Source: Candidatus Latescibacterota bacterium (GTDB lineage Bacteria > Latescibacterota > MWCZ01). Taken from it: a stretch of 64,000 nt of DNA. Below, one piece after another: positions 1 to 36,389 of this stretch. Position 1 is the first letter of the stretch. Each line of letters begins with the position of its first letter. The notes under the pieces were generated by a model. That model made no database searches, was not told where the DNA came from, and worked only from the letters and a program-made list of their open reading frames with translations. A program made the position numbers and the translations under genes. The DNA lies in contig JAKJDF010000007.1 of NCBI GenBank assembly GCA_022706085.1, forward strand, positions 10,474 through 74,473. Direction: 5' to 3'.

Positions 1-281
1 CACGGCTCAGAAGACCTGATCCACCGCCGCGGTACCGATTGAAATGGAGTACGTCAATGTCATGGGAGAGGCAGATTGCATAACGTCTGCGGGAGGGAAA
101 AGCGGGAAATGCGCCTCGTTCAAAAAGAAAACGCGAGACGACGGGATCAAACGGCGCCCGTTGTTGCGACGCGAAGAATCGGAATCTTCCCAGACCATCC
201 AGGAAGAGTGGTTCGTATTCCTCCCGGCGGGTGAACACATCCCACAGGTACCCGTTTGCTCGCAGAGCGGCAGATACAGCC

Positions 282-611
282 TCATCCATCACTGCTCTCG
301 GGCGCCGAAGGATTTACCTTTGCGACCCGCTCCCAGTATTCACGGGCCTGATCGAAACTGTCTTTCATGATCGTGGTTCTGCCGATCTCATCAATAAGAG
401 CGCGGGCTTCCTTTGCACGTTCTTCCGGCACCACGCCAATTGCAAGTAACATCAACGCGTGGTGCACCAGGCCCGTCTCGAACAGCGCCCTGTTTGCGTC
501 ACCAACGGCGGCGGAGCCGCGCGTCGCGTCCAGATAGATCTCGTACAGGCGCGCCGTCGCCCCGGCCAGCGTGAACTCCGCCTTTGTCGCGTGGTACATG
601 CGCCACCTCAC
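282..611 (-). CDS. hypothetical protein (109 aa)
   Basis: Only ORF in this region with balanced, non-Arg/Pro-rich composition; no family recognised. Lies downstream of guaA on the same strand. Confidence 0.3.
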   Translation of the reverse strand: MRWRMYHATKAEFTLAGATARLYEIYLDATRGSAAVGDANRALFETGLVHHALMLLAIGVVPEERAKEARALIDEIGRTTIMKDSFDQAREYWERVAKVNPSAPESSDG

Positions 612-28484: not shown

Positions 28485-28674
28485 GCGGACGCCGAAACCC
28501 GAATGGTTCGTGTGCGAAACCTGCGGGAAACAGACGCGGGCATTGCGTCGTGATGTGCTGGACGAGCACTACAATGCCCTCGGGAAGACTCCTCTCTGGA
28601 ACTGCGAAGAATGCTACCAACAGAAGAGGCGGGAGCGCCTCAGTCAGCCCGACTCACCCGACCCGTCGTCCTGA
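28477..28674 (+). CDS. small zinc-ribbon protein (65 aa), tentative
   Basis: AGGAGCAAAGG ribosome-binding site then ATG; two CxxC pairs (CETC...CEEC); overlaps the annotated aroK start by 64 bp, so one of the two start calls may be wrong. Confidence 0.3.
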   Translation: MGKRTPKPEWFVCETCGKQTRALRRDVLDEHYNALGKTPLWNCEECYQQKRRERLSQPDSPDPSS

Positions 28675-29210
28675 TCGGCTTCATGGGCGCCGGTAAGACG
28701 AAGGTGGGGAAAATCGCCGCGCAGTATATCGGGTGCGATTTCGTGGACACTGACCACATCGTGGAGCGCTCCGCCGGCAAGTCTATCTCCGAGTTGTTCG
28801 CGGAGGTCGGGGAGGAGCGGTTTCGCGAGCTTGAAACGGAGGCCATCGAGTGGGCGCTGAACACGCGCGGCGGCATTATCGCGCTGGGCGGCGGCGCCGC
28901 AACGCGTGAGGAGAACTGGCAGTTGCTGCGCAGGTCAGGAGCGATGACGATCTACCTGCAGGCGTCGCCGAGAACACTGCTCGCACGGGTTGCGGACAAG
29001 GGTACGCGGCCGCTTCTGGCCGGCCTCGACCGCCCGCAGATGCTGGAAAAGATCACGTCCCTTCTGGAACAGCGCGAACCGTGGTACCTCCGGGCAGACA
29101 TTACCCTTGCCACCGATAACTCGCTTGACAAGTATGGCATGGCGGATGCACTGGTCGCGCGCCTCAAAGAAGCCGGCATCAGCGCGGCTGAATTGCACCG
29201 GACGTCATGA
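28611..29210 (+). CDS. aroK: shikimate kinase
   Basis: P-loop VVLIGFMGAGKTKVGK, core length about 170 aa plus short N-terminal extension. Confidence 0.8.
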   Translation: MLPTEEAGAPQSARLTRPVVLIGFMGAGKTKVGKIAAQYIGCDFVDTDHIVERSAGKSISELFAEVGEERFRELETEAIEWALNTRGGIIALGGGAATREENWQLLRRSGAMTIYLQASPRTLLARVADKGTRPLLAGLDRPQMLEKITSLLEQREPWYLRADITLATDNSLDKYGMADALVARLKEAGISAAELHRTS

Positions 29211-30034
29211 ACGGGCGGCACAGAACCACACTGTGGCGGGAACATGTTGCGCTCTGGCGAGACGCCTGGCGGCGGGTGGTATCACACCGCCGGCAGGTCG
29301 TGCTGATCACTTTGTTGCTGTGGGTGCCGTGGCGGTTTGTGGTTCCTCTGGTTGATCGCCAGCTCGGTTTCGGGGCATTCGCCGGATTTCCGCTGGAATG
29401 GATTGCCGACGCACTATATGACCCGCTGTACGGGGCCACCATCCTTGCGGTGCTGGCAGAGATGTACCCGATTTCCGTTCGGAGCGCCCTCCTGAGGGGT
29501 TTCTGGCTCGTTCCCCGTCTGTGGCTGATCGAGATCAAAGTAGCGATCTGGGGGCTGGCCGTGCCCTACCTGATCCTCCATCTCGGGGCGGCGACCGTGT
29601 TGACTCTGTGGCCGAGCTACGGGGCCGCCCGCGCGCTCTTCGCGGTGACGATCGTCAGCATGGCATGGGTGCTGATTGTGGTGGTTCGGTACATGCTGGC
29701 AGCCGCGGTGATGGTTGCGGAAACGCAGGGGCACACCTGGAACGGGGAGCAGGCGCCTTCCACCGGGTGGGCGCTTTCGGCGGCGCGGCAGTTGATCCAG
29801 GGGAACGCAGGGCAAGCGGTTCTCGTGATGGCCGTGGGGCAGGGAGTTATCTCGCTCATCGTGTCGCTCCTTCCTTCGGGCGATACCGTGCCGGCGCAGG
29901 TTCTAAACGCGGCGGGCATGGTGGTTACGGCGCTCTGGTGGGCGCTTTTGTGGAGCTTTTGCCAGCTCTGTCTCAACAGGGCGCGCGGGGTGACCGCACA
30001 GGAGGCAACGCATGGACGTCAGAAAGCTCGTTGA
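29207..30034 (+). CDS. hypothetical integral membrane protein
   Basis: 275 aa, multiple hydrophobic helices (VVLITLLLWVPW, IWGLAVPYLILHLGAATVL, VTALWWALLWSF); ATGA overlap with aroK stop. Confidence 0.5.
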   Translation: MNGRHRTTLWREHVALWRDAWRRVVSHRRQVVLITLLLWVPWRFVVPLVDRQLGFGAFAGFPLEWIADALYDPLYGATILAVLAEMYPISVRSALLRGFWLVPRLWLIEIKVAIWGLAVPYLILHLGAATVLTLWPSYGAARALFAVTIVSMAWVLIVVVRYMLAAAVMVAETQGHTWNGEQAPSTGWALSAARQLIQGNAGQAVLVMAVGQGVISLIVSLLPSGDTVPAQVLNAAGMVVTALWWALLWSFCQLCLNRARGVTAQEATHGRQKAR

Positions 30035-30377
30035 TCATCTCGACCGCAGCCGCATGGTGCTGTGCCACAGTGGGACGATCTATTCGCAGGCGTTGTTCGG
30101 TGAGTTACGCCCGGATGAGGTGTGCCCGGGCGTGTTCGCCTATGCGCCGGGATGGGGCGTGCTGGACCCGGGGATGACCATGGAGGCGCACGAACATCCG
30201 GTCGCTGAGTTTTACGTGTTCGCGAGCGGAAAGGGACGGATGCGGCTGGGCGACACGTGGTTCGATGTCGAGCCGAATATGTCCGTGAATATCCCACCCG
30301 GGGTGGAACATGAGCTGGCGAATGATGCCGCGTCGCCTCTCCCACTCGTGTTTGTTTCGGTCGGCCTGAGGATCTGA
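30012..30377 (+). CDS. cupin domain protein
   Basis: 121 aa, metal-binding-like HEHPVAEFYVF...G...NIPPGVEHE two-motif cupin pattern. Confidence 0.6.
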   Translation: MDVRKLVDHLDRSRMVLCHSGTIYSQALFGELRPDEVCPGVFAYAPGWGVLDPGMTMEAHEHPVAEFYVFASGKGRMRLGDTWFDVEPNMSVNIPPGVEHELANDAASPLPLVFVSVGLRI

Positions 30378-30503: not shown

Positions 30504-30932
30504 ATGCCAAGACCACGGAATCCCCGGCAGGTGCGATGTATGCCGTGCACGGATTACTTCAAACCGCGGGGCATCCCGCTGCGGGCGCTGGAAGAGGTGA
30601 CGCTGGCGGTGGAAGAACTGGAAGCGTTGCGGCTGGCTGATCTGGAAGGGATGGAGCAGATGGCGGGCGCGGAGCAGATGGAGGTATCGCGCCCCACGTT
30701 TGCACGGGTGCTCGCCTCCGCGCGGAAGAAGGTGGCGGATGCGCTGGTGAACGGGAAAGCGCTCCGGATTGAAGGCGGGGTGTTCCGGATGGCGGAGGGC
30801 GTCCCGTTCTGGGGACGGCACGGACACGGGTGGGGACGGGGCCGCGGCGGAGGATGCGGGCGGCGATTCCGGGGAGGACGTGAGTTTGGCCGGGGCGAGA
30901 CGCCCCCTGAACCGATGCCTGATTCCGAATAA
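30504..30932 (+). CDS. DUF134 (UPF0251) family predicted DNA-binding protein with Gly/Arg-rich C-terminal tail
   Basis: MPRPRNPRQVRCMPCTDYFKPRGIPLRALEEVTLAVEELEALRLADLEGMEQ...VSRPTFARVLASARKKVADALVNGKALRIEGG matches the DUF134 signature; tail GHGWGRGRGGGCGRRFRGGREFGRG. Confidence 0.8.
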   Translation: MPRPRNPRQVRCMPCTDYFKPRGIPLRALEEVTLAVEELEALRLADLEGMEQMAGAEQMEVSRPTFARVLASARKKVADALVNGKALRIEGGVFRMAEGVPFWGRHGHGWGRGRGGGCGRRFRGGREFGRGETPPEPMPDSE

Positions 30933-30945
30933 GAGGTAACAGCGA

Positions 30946-31302
30946 ATGTATACGATCAATTATGATCTTTGCACACGATGCTTTGCCTGCGTGAAAGCCT
31001 GCAAGAGACCGGGGGCACTGGAAATCCGAGAGGGAAAACCGAAGATCAATTTCGTGTTGTGCACCGAGTGCGGCCTGTGCGCGGAAGCGTGTCAGCACGG
31101 GGCGATAACGAAATGGGAGGCACGCGAGGAGGATGCCCAACCGCCGGAGGTCCCGGTTGCGAGTTCGCCGCCGCCTGTTTCCGCTCCCGCTGGGAATCCG
31201 CTTTCCCGGGGGTTTGCGCGATGCGGGGCATGGATCCGTTCGGCATGTGGGCGGCGGGGCGCACCTCGAGGTTACCGGAGGGGTGGACGCTGGAGGGTTT
31301 GA
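30946..31302 (+). CDS. 2x[4Fe-4S] ferredoxin
   Basis: Two Cx2Cx2Cx3C motifs (CTRCFACVKAC, CTECGLCAEAC) in the first 55 aa; low-complexity C-terminal extension. Confidence 0.75.
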   Translation: MYTINYDLCTRCFACVKACKRPGALEIREGKPKINFVLCTECGLCAEACQHGAITKWEAREEDAQPPEVPVASSPPPVSAPAGNPLSRGFARCGAWIRSACGRRGAPRGYRRGGRWRV

Positions 31303-31353
31303 TATCCGAGGAGTGTTCTGGTTGGAAACTATTCACAGAAAGGGAAGGACGCC

Positions 31354-31710
31354 ATGAAGATCGCGGTTCCAGTAGACACGAACGAGGGCCTCAGAAGTAT
31401 CGTTGCCGGCCATTTCGGGCATGCACCGCACTATGCGTTCGTCGATGGAAAGACGAAGCAATGCGCCGTTGTTCCAAACGCGAGTTCGCACAATGGCGGG
31501 GACAAGCTGCCCCCGGAATGGTTGTTTGATGAAGGCGTGAATGTCCTCATCTGCAACGGGCTGGGCGCGCGTGCCATCGGCCTGTGCACACAACTGGGAA
31601 TCGAGGTCTATATCACGGAGGAGCAAACAGTGGCGGAGTCCATTGGCGCGTTTGAAGCGGGAATGCTGCCCAGGGCGGGTTCCGATGATGCGTGCGCTCA
31701 CAAGCATTAG
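31354..31710 (+). CDS. NifX/NafY-like protein (dinitrogenase FeMo-cofactor biosynthesis domain family)
   Basis: MKIAVPVDTNEGLRSIVAGHFGHAPHYAFVD...VNVLICNGLGARAIGLCTQLGIEVY, typical of this domain; AAGGGAAGGA ribosome-binding site. Confidence 0.75.
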   Translation: MKIAVPVDTNEGLRSIVAGHFGHAPHYAFVDGKTKQCAVVPNASSHNGGDKLPPEWLFDEGVNVLICNGLGARAIGLCTQLGIEVYITEEQTVAESIGAFEAGMLPRAGSDDACAHKH

Positions 31711-31739
31711 ATTCCACAACACGACGAAAGGTGAGACCG

Positions 31740-32270
31740 ATGAAGATCGCAGTAAGCAGTTCCGGTCAGGAGCTCGACTCGCCGGTAGATCCGCGATTCG
31801 GACGATGCACTCATTTCGTAATCGTGGACTCCGACACTGACGACTACGACGCCATTGAAAATGCAGCAAGTGAAGCGGGAAGTGGCGCGGGAATCGCGGC
31901 GGCAAGCGCACTGGCGAAGGCGGGCGCGGAGGTTGTTTTGACGGGGAACCTCGGGCCCAATGCCGCGCGCACTCTCTCCACGCTCGGCATCAAGGCGTAC
32001 CGCGCAGAGGGCGACACGGTGGGAGAATCGGTGACCGCTTTCATTGATGGGCAACGGTTCGAAATCACGTCGCCGACTGTCACCGCGAAATCGGGCCTGA
32101 ATCCGCCTGCCGCGGTATTCCCCTCTCGTCCGTTGGGCGGCAGCACTGGCGGAGGAATGGGACGCGGTATGGGCGGCGGCGGAGGTATCGGCGGGGGTGG
32201 CGGCAGAGGCGCCGGTGGAGACCGTGGTGCTGGCGGCGGCAGAGGGGCCGGTGGCGGACGCGGAAGATGA
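31740..32270 (+). CDS. NifX/NafY-like protein with Gly/Arg-rich C-terminal tail
   Basis: MKIAVSSSGQELDSPVDPRFGRCTHFVIVD...AEVVLTGNLGPNAARTLSTLGIKAY, then tail GGGMGRGMGGGGGIGGGGGRGAGGDRGAGGGRGAGGGRGR; AAAGGTGAG ribosome-binding site. Confidence 0.7.
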   Translation: MKIAVSSSGQELDSPVDPRFGRCTHFVIVDSDTDDYDAIENAASEAGSGAGIAAASALAKAGAEVVLTGNLGPNAARTLSTLGIKAYRAEGDTVGESVTAFIDGQRFEITSPTVTAKSGLNPPAAVFPSRPLGGSTGGGMGRGMGGGGGIGGGGGRGAGGDRGAGGGRGAGGGRGR

Positions 32271-33121
32271 TAGTAAGCGTTGCAAGCGGGAAAGGCGGAA
32301 CCGGCAAGACCACGGTTGCGGTTGCGCTGGCGCAGGTAGCTCCGAACAGCGCCTACGTGGATTGCGACACCGAAGCGCCTAACGGGCACCTGTTTTTGCG
32401 CCCGAATATTTCACACCGCAAACCGGTCAATCGCAAAGTAGCCTCGATCAATGTGAACATGTGCACGTGGTGCGGTGAATGCATGGAAAAATGCGCCTAC
32501 CACGCGATCGTGATCGCACACGCGACGAAGAAGGCCGTCGTATTCGAGGACCTGTGCATGGGATGCGGCGTCTGTTCACTCGTGTGCCCGGCTCGCGCGA
32601 TTACAGAGGAAGACCGGCACGCGGGAATCGTTTCGAACGGCCACAGTGGCAGGATTCGCACGCGGGAGGGCCGAATGGCGGTTGAGGCTCCTCACGCGCA
32701 CCCTGTGCTGAATGAGACGTTGAAGGAGCTTCCCGATGCGCCTCACACGATTCTCGACGCGGAGCCGGGTGTCACGGGGCGTGTAGTAACAACGGTGAGG
32801 GCAAGCGATGTGTGTGTTCTAGTCACTGAGCCAACACCGTTCGGGCTGCACGATCTGGAGCTGGCCGTGACGATGACGCAGCATGTCGGGGTTCCGGTCG
32901 GCGTCATCATCAATCGTTCAACGATAGGCGACAACGCCGTGCGCGACTTTTGTCGGGTTCGGACCATACCCGTTCTGCTGGAGATTCCGTTTGACCGACG
33001 CATTGCAGCGGGGTACGCGGTGGGAAAGACGCTTGTTGAGATTCTGCCGGACATGAAAAGCCAATTTGCGGAGGTTCTCAGGCATATCGAGCGGATCGTC
33101 ACTGAGAGGGGGCGATCATGA
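32267..33121 (+). CDS. MinD/ParA-type P-loop ATPase with embedded 4Fe-4S ferredoxin domain
   Basis: Deviant Walker A SGKGGTGKTT; ferredoxin insert CTWCGECMEKC...CMGCGVCSLVCP; ATGA overlap with upstream gene. Confidence 0.8.
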   Translation: MIVSVASGKGGTGKTTVAVALAQVAPNSAYVDCDTEAPNGHLFLRPNISHRKPVNRKVASINVNMCTWCGECMEKCAYHAIVIAHATKKAVVFEDLCMGCGVCSLVCPARAITEEDRHAGIVSNGHSGRIRTREGRMAVEAPHAHPVLNETLKELPDAPHTILDAEPGVTGRVVTTVRASDVCVLVTEPTPFGLHDLELAVTMTQHVGVPVGVIINRSTIGDNAVRDFCRVRTIPVLLEIPFDRRIAAGYAVGKTLVEILPDMKSQFAEVLRHIERIVTERGRS

Positions 33122-34035
33122 CTCCGCAGATTACGGTGGTAAGCGGGAAAGGCGGTACCGGAAAGACAACGCTTACTGCTCTGTGGGGCAGCATGGCAGA
33201 CAGGCCGGTGCTTGTAGACGCGGATGTGGACGCGTCGAACCTTCCGCTGGCGTACCCCCACGAGACGCGGGAGCAGCATCCGTTCGTTGGACGGGATGTG
33301 GCCGTAGTGAACGAGCCGTTGTGCAAGAATTGCGGTGTGTGCGCGAGGGCGTGCAGGTTTGATGCGTTTGTGCAGGTTGAAGGCCAGTTCCGGGTGGACC
33401 CGCTTGCGTGCGAAGGATGCACGCTGTGCACGCTGGTGTGCCCGCTCGATGCGATCACCATGAAACCGCACGTCTCCGGAACGTGGTCTGTGAGCGAAAC
33501 CGGGTTCGGACCTCTCGTCCATGCTCAACTGGGAATTGCGGAGGGGAATTCCGGCAAACTGGTGACGCAGGTGCGCCGGGCGGGGGAGAAGCTGGCAGAG
33601 GAGCGGGTGGCGGCAGTGATTCTGGTTGACGGCCCTCCGGGGATCGGCTGCCAGACAACGGCGGCGATGGCGGGAGCCTCTCTGGTGGTGCTGGTAACTG
33701 AACCGTCGGCGTCAGGGCGGCACGACATGGAGCGGTTGCTTTCGGTAACGAATCGGCTGGGTGTTCCGGCGCTTGTTGTTCTCAACAAGGTTGACCTTGC
33801 ACCCGCTGAAGAGGCGTTGATTCGGAACGCGGTATCGCGCATGGGCGCGGAGTATGCGGAGTATATAGGGTCCGTCCCGTTCATTCAGGAGGTCCCCGGG
33901 CTGCTTGCTTCGGGAACCCTGCTCAGCGAGTGCCCGCGCCCGCTGAGGGAAGCGGCGGAAGGACTGTGGAAGGTAATTCTGGAACGCGCACTGGTGGCGG
34001 AGCGCGTCCAGCAGGGAGAACCTGCGCACGGATAA
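33118..34035 (+). CDS. MinD/ParA-type P-loop ATPase with embedded 4Fe-4S ferredoxin domain (paralogue)
   Basis: SGKGGTGKTT; CKNCGVCARAC...CEGCTLCTLVCP; ATGA overlap with upstream paralogue. Confidence 0.8.
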   Translation: MTPQITVVSGKGGTGKTTLTALWGSMADRPVLVDADVDASNLPLAYPHETREQHPFVGRDVAVVNEPLCKNCGVCARACRFDAFVQVEGQFRVDPLACEGCTLCTLVCPLDAITMKPHVSGTWSVSETGFGPLVHAQLGIAEGNSGKLVTQVRRAGEKLAEERVAAVILVDGPPGIGCQTTAAMAGASLVVLVTEPSASGRHDMERLLSVTNRLGVPALVVLNKVDLAPAEEALIRNAVSRMGAEYAEYIGSVPFIQEVPGLLASGTLLSECPRPLREAAEGLWKVILERALVAERVQQGEPAHG

Positions 34036-34061
34036 CGCACCGGAAAGGATGGGTAAGGAAA

Positions 34062-34247
34062 ATGCCTCTGGGTGACGGAAAGGGGCCCCCGGAAGGGACT
34101 GGCCCGATGACGGGGAGGAAGCGCCTCGCGGCAAGCTGCCCATCGAAGAAACCTGAAAAAGCAAGCGGGTGGTCTCTTCTAGGACTTATCGTTGTGGCGT
34201 TACTCGCGCTTGGGGTGTGGTTTGTCTCGCACAACACAGACGATTGA
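34062..34247 (+). CDS. small membrane-anchored protein with DUF5320-like N-terminus (61 aa), tentative
   Basis: AAGGAAA ribosome-binding site then ATG; MPLGDGKGPPEGTGPMTGRK shares the GxGPMTGR motif with the downstream DUF5320-like protein; C-terminal TM helix LLGLIVVALLALGVWFV. Confidence 0.4.
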   Translation: MPLGDGKGPPEGTGPMTGRKRLAASCPSKKPEKASGWSLLGLIVVALLALGVWFVSHNTDD

Positions 34248-34593
34248 GATTGCACCACGAGAAGGAGATCCACATGCCAGGAGTACGGGGAATGAGGCCG
34301 ATGGGAAGGCGGTGTACTGCGCTTGGTCCCGGTCGGGGCGGATACGCGGTGCGGCCGACCTCCTTTGCGGGGGGATATCGCCTCATTCGTTGCGGCCGAG
34401 GATGCCGTGGGCGGGGGTTCCGCGAGCGGTGGTCCCATCGAGCCTTTTTTGCGCCCGGATTTGCGTGGAGACAGCCCTTCGCAGCGCCTGTTGGCGCGCC
34501 GTGGAGGGTTTAGTTCATAATCGCGCCCAGGGTGATGGTCAGCATCATAAGGGCGCATGTATATCAACACACTTGCGATAAGGAGGCAGAACA

Positions 34594-34920
34594 ATGCCAG
34601 CAGGAGATGGCACTGGTCCCATGGGAATGGGACCGATGACGGGTCGGCGCGCGGGATTTTGCGCCGGATTCGGCGTTCCGGGATACATGAACCCGGGAGC
34701 GGGTTTCTGGTGCGGCGGTGGCCGCGGGCGGGGATTCCGCAATCGGTACTGGGCAACAGGAATACCCGGATGGGCGTGGTGGCAGGGCGTTCCGGGAACC
34801 GTCCCCGCGCCGATGACCGAAGAGGCCGAAGCGGAAGCACTGCGTCAGCAGGCGGCGGCTCTCCAGCGGTCGCTGGATGCGATCAACCAGAGGCTTGCGA
34901 GCCTGACCTCAGAGAAATAG
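34594..34920 (+). CDS. DUF5320-like small protein (108 aa)
   Basis: MPAGDGTGPMGMGPMTGRRAGFCAGFG..., Gly/Arg/Trp-rich middle, C-terminal coiled coil (EAEAEALRQQAAALQRSLDAINQRLASL); GGAGG ribosome-binding site. Confidence 0.55.
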   Translation: MPAGDGTGPMGMGPMTGRRAGFCAGFGVPGYMNPGAGFWCGGGRGRGFRNRYWATGIPGWAWWQGVPGTVPAPMTEEAEAEALRQQAAALQRSLDAINQRLASLTSEK

Positions 34921-35011: not shown

Positions 35012-36142
35012 TTACGCCGGCCAGTGATCCCAGAATCTTTTCCTGCCACGTTCGCTGACGTAACCGGCGAGAGCTCTTCGGGGGCATCCCTCATCGAGGA
35101 GACGCTTCACTTCTTTCGCCGCGCGAATGAACGCGTGGATTTTCGGGATGTTCTCCCCATTGCATGAATTTGCTTCCAGAATCGTGAATACTCTGGAGGC
35201 CCCGTCCGCAGCCGACTGAAAGACGAAATCCTCCACGTCCTGCGCGTCCAGCACCGTTAGATGGATTCCCCCGAGGCGCCAGCCAAAGGGTACGCGGCAC
35301 TCGTCCGCGATGATACGGGGGTTCAGGTGGTGGGAGATGGACGGGTCGTAGTAAGACAGCCCGATCTGTTCCAGGAAGGGCAGGTGAGCAGGTTTCAGGT
35401 CTTCCACGTGCGCATGAACATCACCCGTGGTGCGGCGGCGGAAGAGATCGCTCCAGAACGGGACGACGAATTCATTCCAGAGCCGTGGGGGAATCATTGC
35501 GGCGATGTCGTCGCACAGGCTTGCGCCGCTTTCGTTGAACACCGTTGCGCCGGTAACGCCGAGGCGGAACTGCTCGAACGCGAGGATACTGTCGTTGATC
35601 CGGCCCAGGAGCTCCTTTGTTTTCGCCGGTTCCTCCATCACGTCGACGAAAAAGGCATCGCCCCGCAATTCGTAGGCTGTGGTGCAGGGACCTTCCACTC
35701 CGAAGGAGAAGCCGACCGATTCGCCGGGAAACGCCCGCATCATCTGTTCGCGGAAGTCCAGATAGAACGGGGCCATCCCTCTGCTGGCGAAATCGACCGG
35801 CCGCGCGAGAGCTTCCATCGCTTCCGCCATCGAGTGCGCGAAGCAGTGCTCGACCGCGACCTCGCCTCCTTCGGGGAAAAACAATCTCGCGCCCAGGGCG
35901 CTGGCGTGGCCGTAACTTACTGGCGGCGTGGCGGGAGAGGGCAAGGAAACGTCGTGCGGGTCGAACAGCTGCCTTTGCTTTTCCCGTCCGACGCGATACG
36001 CCTCGATACAGGCTTCTGGTTTGAGAAAGAAATCGCGGAACGGTACCCCGGACAGCGCAAGGCAGGAGAGATAGCTACCTGACACGCTCCATGAGAACTC
36101 CTTCGGATTGCGCGCGGATGTGTAGTCGGGTTTGCGGTACAT
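35012..36142 (-). CDS. uroporphyrinogen decarboxylase (URO-D) family protein
   Basis: Start MYRKPDYTSARNPKEF preceded by AGGAGG; about 376 aa; third URO-D-like paralogue in the window. Confidence 0.7.
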   Translation of the reverse strand: MYRKPDYTSARNPKEFSWSVSGSYLSCLALSGVPFRDFFLKPEACIEAYRVGREKQRQLFDPHDVSLPSPATPPVSYGHASALGARLFFPEGGEVAVEHCFAHSMAEAMEALARPVDFASRGMAPFYLDFREQMMRAFPGESVGFSFGVEGPCTTAYELRGDAFFVDVMEEPAKTKELLGRINDSILAFEQFRLGVTGATVFNESGASLCDDIAAMIPPRLWNEFVVPFWSDLFRRRTTGDVHAHVEDLKPAHLPFLEQIGLSYYDPSISHHLNPRIIADECRVPFGWRLGGIHLTVLDAQDVEDFVFQSAADGASRVFTILEANSCNGENIPKIHAFIRAAKEVKRLLDEGCPRRALAGYVSERGRKRFWDHWPA

Positions 36143-36389
36143 GATGGCCTCCTGATACCAATGAATCGGGAAAAGTGCCCACGGGAGCAAGCTGGCGCCT
36201 GAACGGAGTGTCACGAGGGAACTTGGTGCCGGGGCCGCGTCGCGCTATTGTACTTGACGAATCCGGGAAACTGCTATCCCGGTGTCAGTGACTGTGTTCC
36301 CACAGGTTGCGTCCTCCTGAATGCCCTCATGCAGGGCGGCGAGCGTCTTCCTCAGGGTGTTTTTCGACTCCACGGAAAGGAATCCGAGC

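Follow-up and report, generated by a model that had tools for sequence, protein, structure and literature searches.

What do stretches made largely of glycine and arginine do on several otherwise unrelated proteins of one bacterial operon, and are they genuine? The question is raised by a plus-strand operon at 30504-34920 of the window, a 64,000-nucleotide stretch of contig JAKJDF010000007.1 from a Candidatus Latescibacterota metagenome-assembled genome (MAG) with a GC content of ~62%. The operon encodes a DUF134 protein, a ferredoxin, two NifX-domain proteins, two MinD-type ATPases and a DUF5320 protein, together with two smaller open reading frames (ORFs). There is high confidence that its glycine/arginine (G/R) tracts are real, read in frame, conserved and selected for arginine, that disorder is predicted for them and that they take part in the shuffling of domains. 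They characterise whole protein families of a gene neighbourhood that is widespread among anaerobes and in which a DUF134 regulator, NifX binders resembling the orange protein (ORP), two MinD-type ATPases and DUF5320 occur together. The tract-bearing proteins and their tracts are as follows (lengths in amino acids, aa).

30504..30932, plus strand: DUF134/UPF0251 predicted helix-turn-helix (HTH) DNA-binding protein, 142 aa, PF02001, with a G/R tail.
30822..30896, plus strand: core of the DUF134 tail, GHGWGRGRGGGCGRRFRGGREFGRG, residues 107-131, rich in G and R (with H, W, C and F), 19/25 G+R.
31740..32270, plus strand: NifX2, ORP homologue, 176 aa, PF02579 at ~81.3 bits, with a G/R tail.
32136..32267, plus strand: G/R tract of NifX2, G133-R176, 44 residues, best window 21/25 G+R, followed directly by TGA.
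34594..34920, plus strand: DUF5320 protein, 108 aa, Pfam PF17253 at 101 bits.
34714-34752, plus strand: tract of the DUF5320 protein, GGGRGRGFRNRYW, residues 41-53, internal and inside the Pfam DUF5320 match.
30946..31302, plus strand: ferredoxin with two [4Fe-4S] motifs, 118 aa, Pfam Fer4 families on residues 3-55, with a basic tail.
31207-31299, plus strand: basic tail of the ferredoxin, RGFARCGAWIRSACGRRGAPRGYRRGGRWRV, residues 88-118, net charge +10, with a Pro-rich linker present.

These tracts are compositional extremes of the window. When 585 six-frame stop-to-stop segments of at least 60 aa are ranked by G+R content in 25 aa, the NifX2 tail comes out on top, ahead of the DUF134 tail in second place; another frame of the NifX2 tail takes third place, and all remaining segments reach at most 16/25. 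In the DUF134 protein, PF02001 covers residues 3-95 (81 bits, cut-off 27), and residues 96-142 form a C-terminal extension. A first-pass annotation, made from the sequence alone, had this protein ending in its G/R tract; the tract is present in frame, but it is not the protein end, since 11 further residues, ETPPEPMPDSE, follow it. The same annotation gave NifX2 a C-terminal tract of roughly 40 residues; the tract has 44. NifX2 most likely starts at ATG 31740 rather than GTG 31692, and consists of a folded domain (residues 1-115) and a 57-residue tail (residues 120-176). Both NifX1, encoded just upstream, and NifX2 exceed the PF02579 cut-off of 26.3 bits (61.7 and 81.3, respectively). Matches to NifX2 in the PDB are 2WFB, 1EO1 and 1RDU, the best being 2WFB_A, the ORP of Desulfovibrio gigas (E 8e-22, residues 2-106). 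The tract noted earlier in the DUF5320 protein is likewise present in frame, though internal. PF17253 matches residues 1-104 of this protein at profile positions 1-99 (101 bits against a cut-off of 27, E 7e-29), and its layout comprises a conserved though disordered N-terminal 60 residues followed by a C-terminal coiled-coil helix.

In two relatives, L083 (~92-94% identity) and L081 (~77%), all tails lie in the same frame and differ only by substitutions and whole-codon indels. The tails diverge faster than the domains. Indels in the NifX2 tract span 4 to 11 codons, the largest being 10-11, and this length variation is attributable to a weak tandem repeat with an 18-nt unit in 3.4 copies. All four Gly codons occur in the tract, which is therefore no simple DNA homopolymer. 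The stop codon of NifX2 overlaps the start of MinD1 as ATGA, as does the MinD1 stop with the MinD2 start. Exact sequences of the DUF134 protein, ferredoxin, NifX1, MinD1, MinD2, a 61-aa protein and DUF5320 are present in public Latescibacteria/Latescibacterota MAGs; NifX2 as read from ATG 31740 and a 79-aa ORF are absent from the protein collection searched for exact sequences. AlphaFold2 models built with family alignments give NifX2 a predicted local distance difference test (pLDDT) score of ~95 over residues 1-115 and 47-51, with no secondary structure, over residues 120-176. In the DUF5320 protein, residues 1-50 score below 50 and the helix at 76-107 scores ~90.

The apparent tails could in principle arise from a frameshift, a sequencing error or a wrong frame in a GC-rich assembly. 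GC-rich non-coding frames are indeed rich in Gly, Arg, Ala and Pro, many of them at 14-16/25, and gene callers do miscall small G-rich ORFs, as in locus L086. Identical or near-identical proteins, however, have been assembled independently in many samples, homologous tails occur in hundreds of genomes, and the relatives keep the frame through whole-codon indels, with stop codons that overlap the next start. The probability of such an artefact is accordingly next to nil, and the tails are in-frame extensions of well-formed domains, as the first-pass annotation had held. The miscalled case in L086 is a small ORF at ~144-350 (plus strand), MPRGDGTGPQGKGPGTGRGLGPCGAGQRRG...GRGRGGRGRGLGRGG, directly upstream of DUF5320, where the public gene call (158-367) lies in another frame. 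G/R-rich small genes of this neighbourhood thus appear prone to miscalling. The practical point is that G-rich small ORFs are easily missed or framed wrongly by gene finders.

Tails of this kind are common across the three families. A search with full-length DUF134 returned 3728 homologues; among the best 120 examined, 83 have a tail of at least 12/20 G+R, a figure biased by the query's own tail. Most of the remainder carry a CxxC...CxxC ribbon and finish with a short GRGRG stretch. Best-120 lists from full-length queries lean towards tail-bearing proteins in general, and a frequency of 119/120 among NifX2 homologues was rejected as inflated in this way. The unbiased count for DUF134 uses a domain-only alignment with one genome per species and 80 loci, drawn from Chloroflexota, Planctomycetota, Bacillota, Desulfobacterota, DPANN and other archaea. 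In the loci of relatives, ORFs were called as the longest ORF and families were detected with purpose-built hidden Markov models. Tails of at least 12/20 G+R are found in 24/80 species and of at least 10/20 in 38/80 (30-48%), compared with 18/877 and 45/877 of the background long ORFs in the same loci (2-5%), an enrichment of ~8- to 15-fold.

For NifX2, a domain-only search covered 1.84 billion cluster representatives. Among the best 150 matches, 60 have at least 12/20 G+R and 12 have 10-11/20 (~40-48%), 29 are short and tail-less, and 49 have another architecture. GMGRG repeats occur among the tails of NifX2 homologues. About half of the matches to the full-length query run on into a coiled coil annotated as DUF5320 by Pfam, and are therefore natural NifX-DUF5320 fusions, found in archaea and bacteria. 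In an alignment of 87 DUF5320 homologues, G43, G45, G47 and R49 are invariant or nearly so, as are Cys23 and an N-terminal motif, MPxGDGTGPMGMGPMTGR (the N-motif). Judged by this alignment, the G/R segment is a conserved part of the Pfam domain. These frequencies contradict the earlier view that tails of this sort are no general property of the families. The clustering of tails in one operon, which had seemed striking, is real; it is not peculiar to this genome and belongs to a widespread gene neighbourhood, because tails recur across the DUF134, NifX and DUF5320 families.

High GC content had been raised as a possible source of Gly and Arg codons. G-rich basic segments were extracted by a rule that treats Arg and Lys equally, with locus GC computed on 1.5-20 kb. 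In every GC bin the segments contain 35-38% G, 17-19% R and 1-2% K; aromatic residues make up 6-12%, M 3-5%, H 0-3% and C 1-5%. Below 40% genomic GC, the segments reach an R/(R+K) of 0.87, as against 0.28 for background proteins from the same loci. GRG tracts occur in DUF5320-type proteins at 29-36% GC (L070, L077, L047, L030, L022), and the DUF134 tail score correlates weakly with GC (Spearman 0.34). GC bias is rejected as the cause of the tails, given a composition and R/(R+K) that stay constant across GC bins, and the earlier reading is supported on this point. Comparison with orthologues from lower-GC genomes, the check proposed at that time, finds equivalent tails there, so that the uniform lack of tails which was to have refuted the earlier claim is not seen; the segments extend from archaea rich in AT to bacteria rich in GC. 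The arginine preference below 40% GC and the weak GC correlation point to Arg itself as the target of selection, rather than to positive charge in general or to mutational drift.

The remaining genes of the operon are listed below.

31354..31710, plus strand: NifX1, Nitro_FeMo-Co domain, 118 aa, PF02579 at 61.7 bits, no G/R tail.
32267..33121, plus strand: MinD1, MinD/ParA-type P-loop ATPase with a 2x[4Fe-4S] ferredoxin insert, Orp3/Orp4-like, 284 aa, Pfam CbiA and Fer4 families.
33118..34035, plus strand: MinD2, MinD/ParA-type ATPase with a ferredoxin insert, Orp3/Orp4-like, 305 aa, Pfam CbiA and Fer4 families.
34062..34247, plus strand: sTM, DUF5320 N-terminal motif and hydrophobic helix, 61 aa, annotated in four MAGs.
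34274..34513, plus strand: s79, an unannotated, very basic ORF, 79 aa, of uncertain gene status.

NifX1 peaks at a G+R fraction of 0.24 in any 25-aa window, and MinD1 has no G/R tract; both ATPases match CbiA/ParA together with Fer4_21/Fer4. The 61-aa sTM, annotated as hypothetical, combines the N-motif (MPLGDGKGPPEGTGPMTGRK) with a hydrophobic helix that probably spans the membrane; it lacks a G/R tract and is conserved in L081 and L087. Its PF17253 match, at 17.8 bits, lies below the cut-off of 27 and is confined to the N-motif. The protein could serve as a membrane anchor for a binder of the N-motif. Ribosomally synthesised and post-translationally modified peptide (RiPP) precursors were considered as a reading of the small N-motif proteins and dropped, as no maturase-type gene is found in the cluster or in the annotated loci. 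The adjacent s79 contains CGRGCRGRGFRERW, which resembles the DUF5320 core, and has a pI of 12, a charge of +15, a good upstream GGAG and a degenerate DUF5320-like start, MPG..G..PMG. It is absent between sTM and DUF5320 in L081 and L087, and may represent a duplication particular to this lineage, a pseudogene or an ORF that exists by chance. PF17253 gives no Pfam match on s79 or on the NifX2 tail, so that both, like sTM, show part-resemblance and are not members by Pfam criteria.

The ferredoxin tail carries the motif CGAW[IL]RSAC followed by RRGGRW, kept in L083 and L081. No homologue of this tail is found among 80 distant loci outside the Latescibacterota lineage. Its two additional cysteines may serve as a further metal site or pair in a disulfide. 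The operon is flanked by genes for a shikimate kinase, a membrane protein of 275 aa, a cupin and an opposite-strand URO-D-like protein (28611-30377, plus strand; 35012-36214, minus strand); they have no obvious operon link, and their synteny is kept in L081, L083 and L087.

RGG/RG regions are reportedly defined by Thandapani et al. 2013 as RGG(X0-4)RGG repeats or RG(X0-4)RG(X0-4)RG. By these definitions, di-RGG and tri-RGG repeats are absent from all tracts of the operon. The tracts are of RG/GRG type, with tri-RG in NifX2, the ferredoxin and s79, and di-RG only in DUF134 and DUF5320.

In related genomes the typical gene order is DUF134 - DUF364/DUF4213 - DUF5320 - NifX (with tail) - small protein - MinD - MinD - zinc ribbon - NifX - Mrp/NBP35. 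NifU and MobB also lie near related loci; neighbours were assigned by Pfam, including DUF364, described as 'heavy-metal chelation'. The neighbourhood is an Fe-S/Mo cofactor context. Within it, the G/R segment is often preceded by an N-motif of the form MPxGDGTGPxGxGPMTGR, and the segment, often together with this motif, is fused to DUF134, NifX, a four-Cys ribbon, a coiled coil or a membrane helix; the membrane-helix partner in the window, sTM, carries the N-motif alone. DUF134 and the G/R segment are joined either directly or behind a zinc ribbon or an MPGRDGTGP motif. The small protein between NifX and the MinD pair unites the N-motif, a GR stretch and a four-Cys ribbon. Its conserved form, ~60-80 aa long, reads N-motif, GGRMGG and CVCPxCG...CPxCGxKMxR.

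L001 11933-12133, also L004, L011, L013, L022, L065, L079 and others: N-motif/four-Cys protein, without a Pfam match.

This protein may be the counterpart of Orp5, a [2Fe-2S] protein of Desulfovibrio. The same four-Cys ribbon ends some DUF134 proteins, such as P0010 and P0059. DUF134-NifX fusions occur in L078, L032, L041 and L021, with a linker that is not G/R-rich in these four. The four cases, anecdotal as they are, hint that the DUF134 tail and the DUF134-NifX fusion are alternative couplings of the regulator to NifX. Apparent MinD proteins with G/R tracts in five loci were rejected as short G/R/F-rich ORFs or spurious N-terminal extensions from crude ORF calling.

The functions suggested in the first-pass annotation, nucleic-acid binding, co-assembly and condensate formation, are plausible candidates. 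Taken as a whole and with its mechanism included, the best explanation of these observations is tentative and falls somewhat short of probable. The tails would act as flexible, multivalent cationic 'stickers', in which Arg-aromatic and Arg-carboxylate contacts hold together the mildly acidic components of a metalloprotein complex. The DUF5320 coiled coil would provide an oligomerising hub, and the DUF134 tail would couple the regulator to its NifX partner. That the tails are multivalent tethers of this kind, with DUF5320 as the hub, is put forward as possible rather than probable, and the same reserve applies to the choice of binding partner and to any higher-order assembly. Tethering is favoured because in D. 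vulgaris the homologous proteins of the ORP system associate physically in a complex (PMC6345978), because the module is common to unrelated folds of the operon, and because the aromatic residues are spaced in a sticker-spacer-like manner. Several points weigh against it. The DUF134 tail occurs independently of MinD/DUF5320 genes within 10 kb (19/39 vs 19/41). Charge complementarity is weak, with a median charge of -2 for NifX domains and -4 for MinD-Fer4 proteins. The 120-aa chain of D. gigas ORP (2WFB) leaves no room for a tail and many family members are tail-less, so the tails are dispensable for core function. Finally, such a composition is classically tied to RNA/DNA binding.

Nucleic-acid binding is a close rival, itself doubtful though conceivable. 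Tails of RGG/RG type would bind DNA or RNA, possibly G-quadruplexes (G4s) or their own G-rich mRNA, raising the DNA affinity of DUF134 and anchoring the module of NifX, DUF5320 and MinD-type proteins on the nucleoid or on transcripts. This would suit the HTH-type predicted DNA-binding domain of DUF134, whose tail is present irrespective of DUF5320/MinD neighbours, and the preference for Arg over Lys together with aromatic residues is typical of RNA/DNA-binding RG regions. In addition, the DUF134 and DUF5320 proteins of Methanosarcina mazei are among the top four matches to a human G4-binding RG motif (PMC7565180), the ORP ATPases are MinD/ParA-like, a class hypothesised often to use the nucleoid as a matrix (PMC4672049), and a coding link between RGG motifs and RNA G-quadruplexes (rG4s) has been described (PMC11789052). 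This literature support consists of motif similarity alone, and strict RGG repeats are lacking in the tracts. Neither the NifX-like cofactor carriers nor the four-Cys Fe-S protein has an obvious need for nucleic acids. The tail-coding DNA is itself G4-prone, with G4Hunter scores up to 1.8 (>99.9th percentile), but the window holds 71 comparably G4-prone regions, and the operon contains no canonical G3 quadruplex motif. The signal was rejected as a distinctive feature and looks like a by-product of Gly/Arg codons. The top score in the operon (1.8) falls on the DUF134-tail DNA at 30809-30862 (plus strand), which has four runs of at least three G, one set off by a 13-nt loop, and represents a candidate non-canonical quadruplex on the coding strand.

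Two further explanations are less likely than either tethering or nucleic-acid binding, and an artefact is excluded. One is metal or cluster handling, which is quite improbable: cationic Arg tracts with Met, His and Cys would capture anionic clusters, such as thiomolybdate-type Mo-Cu-S or Fe-S, or pass them to NifX-like and ferredoxin-type domains. The orange protein does have a non-covalently bound, anionic Mo-Cu-S cluster, and the majority of ORP proteins are metalloproteins (PMC6345978). Mrp/NBP35, NifU, MobB and DUF364 ('heavy-metal chelation') are neighbours elsewhere, and the tails contain Met (in GMGRG repeats), His and Cys (in DUF134 tails), with an invariant Cys23 in DUF5320. These residues are nevertheless minor in the tails and not conserved in position, Gly and Arg are poor metal ligands, and tail-less ORP still binds its cluster. 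The other explanation, also of low probability, is a largely neutral expansion of low-complexity sequence, in which slippage in G-rich codons makes and resizes tolerated linkers or tails that have no specific partner. The weak 18-nt repeat in the NifX2 tract and length shifts of up to 10-11 codons among close relatives fit this view, as do the faster evolution of tails than of domains, the many tail-less family members and the modest positive GC correlation (Spearman 0.34). It is difficult to reconcile with an R/(R+K) of 0.87 vs a background of 0.28 and 35% G in genomes below 40% GC, with the ~8- to 15-fold enrichment over background ORFs, or with the recurrence of tracts on the same families in archaea and many bacterial phyla.

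A bolder extension of the tethering model, and a rather unlikely one, is a dedicated prokaryotic sticker system. G/R segments, the DUF5320 N-motif and the coiled coil would then gather ORP-type metalloproteins, ATPases and DUF134 into a higher-order body, either a condensate or a scaffold tethered to the nucleoid or the membrane. If this is true, Arg-specific disordered modules organise anaerobic metal-cofactor handling in bacteria and archaea, with a function analogous to that of the RGG scaffolds of eukaryotic condensates. The ORP-type cluster is common in anaerobes, with cell division or metal-cluster handling as its proposed roles. An Arg-specific module that is kept against mutational bias and shuffled among a regulator, a cofactor carrier and accessory proteins offers an experimental handle on how the complex assembles.

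The closest known counterpart is the ORP system. The ORP complex of D. vulgaris comprises five proteins, of which Orp3 and Orp4 are MinD-like, each with two [4Fe-4S] ferredoxin motifs (PMC6345978, PMC8359166, PMC3897727, PMC4672049). The other members are Orp5, a small [2Fe-2S] protein, Orp9, an Mrp-NifX fusion, and the orange protein itself, Orp8, with homologues that contain an anionic Mo-Cu-S cluster in non-covalent form; most ORP proteins are metalloproteins (PMC6345978). The system is anaerobe-specific, with expression confined to low redox potential and driven by the sigma54 activator OrpR, and is suspected of a role in cell division (PMC6345978, PMC8359166, PMC3897727, PMC4672049). Orp7 (DVU2107) may be a DUF134 protein. 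Judged by its gene content, the operon resembles the ORP cluster of Desulfovibrio, and the neighbourhood as a whole is ORP-like. Like the ORP operons of D. vulgaris Hildenborough, D. gigas and D. alaskensis, it encodes an orange-protein homologue (NifX2, by its match to 2WFB_A) and two paralogous MinD-like ATPases, each with two [4Fe-4S] motifs like Orp3/Orp4 (PMC6345978). Additional NifX-domain proteins, small accessory proteins, restriction to anaerobes and Fe-S/Mo cofactor neighbours in related loci are further shared features. In contrast to the ORP operons, the operon of the window is headed by a DUF134 HTH protein and adds a basic-tailed ferredoxin, DUF5320 and a membrane protein with the DUF5320 motif. 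Its orange-protein homologue ends in a disordered G/R tail of 57 residues, for which the crystallised D. gigas chain, at 120 aa, is too short. A gene for an OrpR-type enhancer-binding protein is absent within 30504-34920, no search having been made for a sigma54 promoter. An Mrp/NBP35-NifX fusion (Orp9) and a four-Cys, Orp5-like protein are likewise absent from this interval, which has no Mrp-type gene at all, and candidate counterparts of both kinds are found in related loci.

Earlier literature already covers the protein families, the ORP system and the RG motif of DUF134 and DUF5320; the window adds a Latescibacterota member. RG motifs in the DUF134 and DUF5320 proteins of M. mazei were noted in print by Brazda et al. 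2020 (PMC7565180), where the same two families matched a motif like the human G4-binding RGRGRGRGGGSGGSGGRGRG. That study (PMC7565180) differs in being a motif scan of one proteome, without operon context, conservation analysis or experiment. No paper on the function of DUF5320 or of these tails was found in the literature searched, and the two papers that mention DUF5320 are not functional studies. Leads for 'DUF134' in passages of encapsulin and Bacteroidetes iron papers were rejected, as those passages gave DUF1345 and DUF1349 only, which look like prefix matches.

Compared with Pfam DUF5320, the 108-aa protein of the window is a full-length member, with N-motif, G/R segment and C-terminal helix. 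The tail of NifX2 is similar to the linker, rich in G, R and M, that the NifX-DUF5320 fusions carry, but differs in lacking the C-terminal coiled coil and a Pfam DUF5320 call. Eukaryotic RGG/RG (glycine/arginine-rich, GAR) regions, such as those of FMRP, nucleolin, fibrillarin and LAF-1, share with the tracts a dominance of Gly and Arg, interspersed aromatics, predicted disorder, a preference for Arg over Lys and attachment as tails to folded domains. The tracts in the window, unlike these, are prokaryotic, stand in a metal-cluster operon without an RNA-recognition motif (RRM), KH or helicase domain, and follow GRG/GMGRG periodicity instead of strict RGG repeats. Partners of ParA/MinD-class ATPases, such as the N-termini of ParG and ParB, and McdB, are small proteins encoded by neighbouring genes and carry basic disordered peptides. 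DUF5320 has no sequence similarity to them, and the ATPases here contain Fe-S ferredoxin inserts; like these partners, however, it has a coiled coil and a basic disordered region besides a conserved peptide at its extreme N-terminus, and its gene lies close to those of MinD/ParA-type ATPases.

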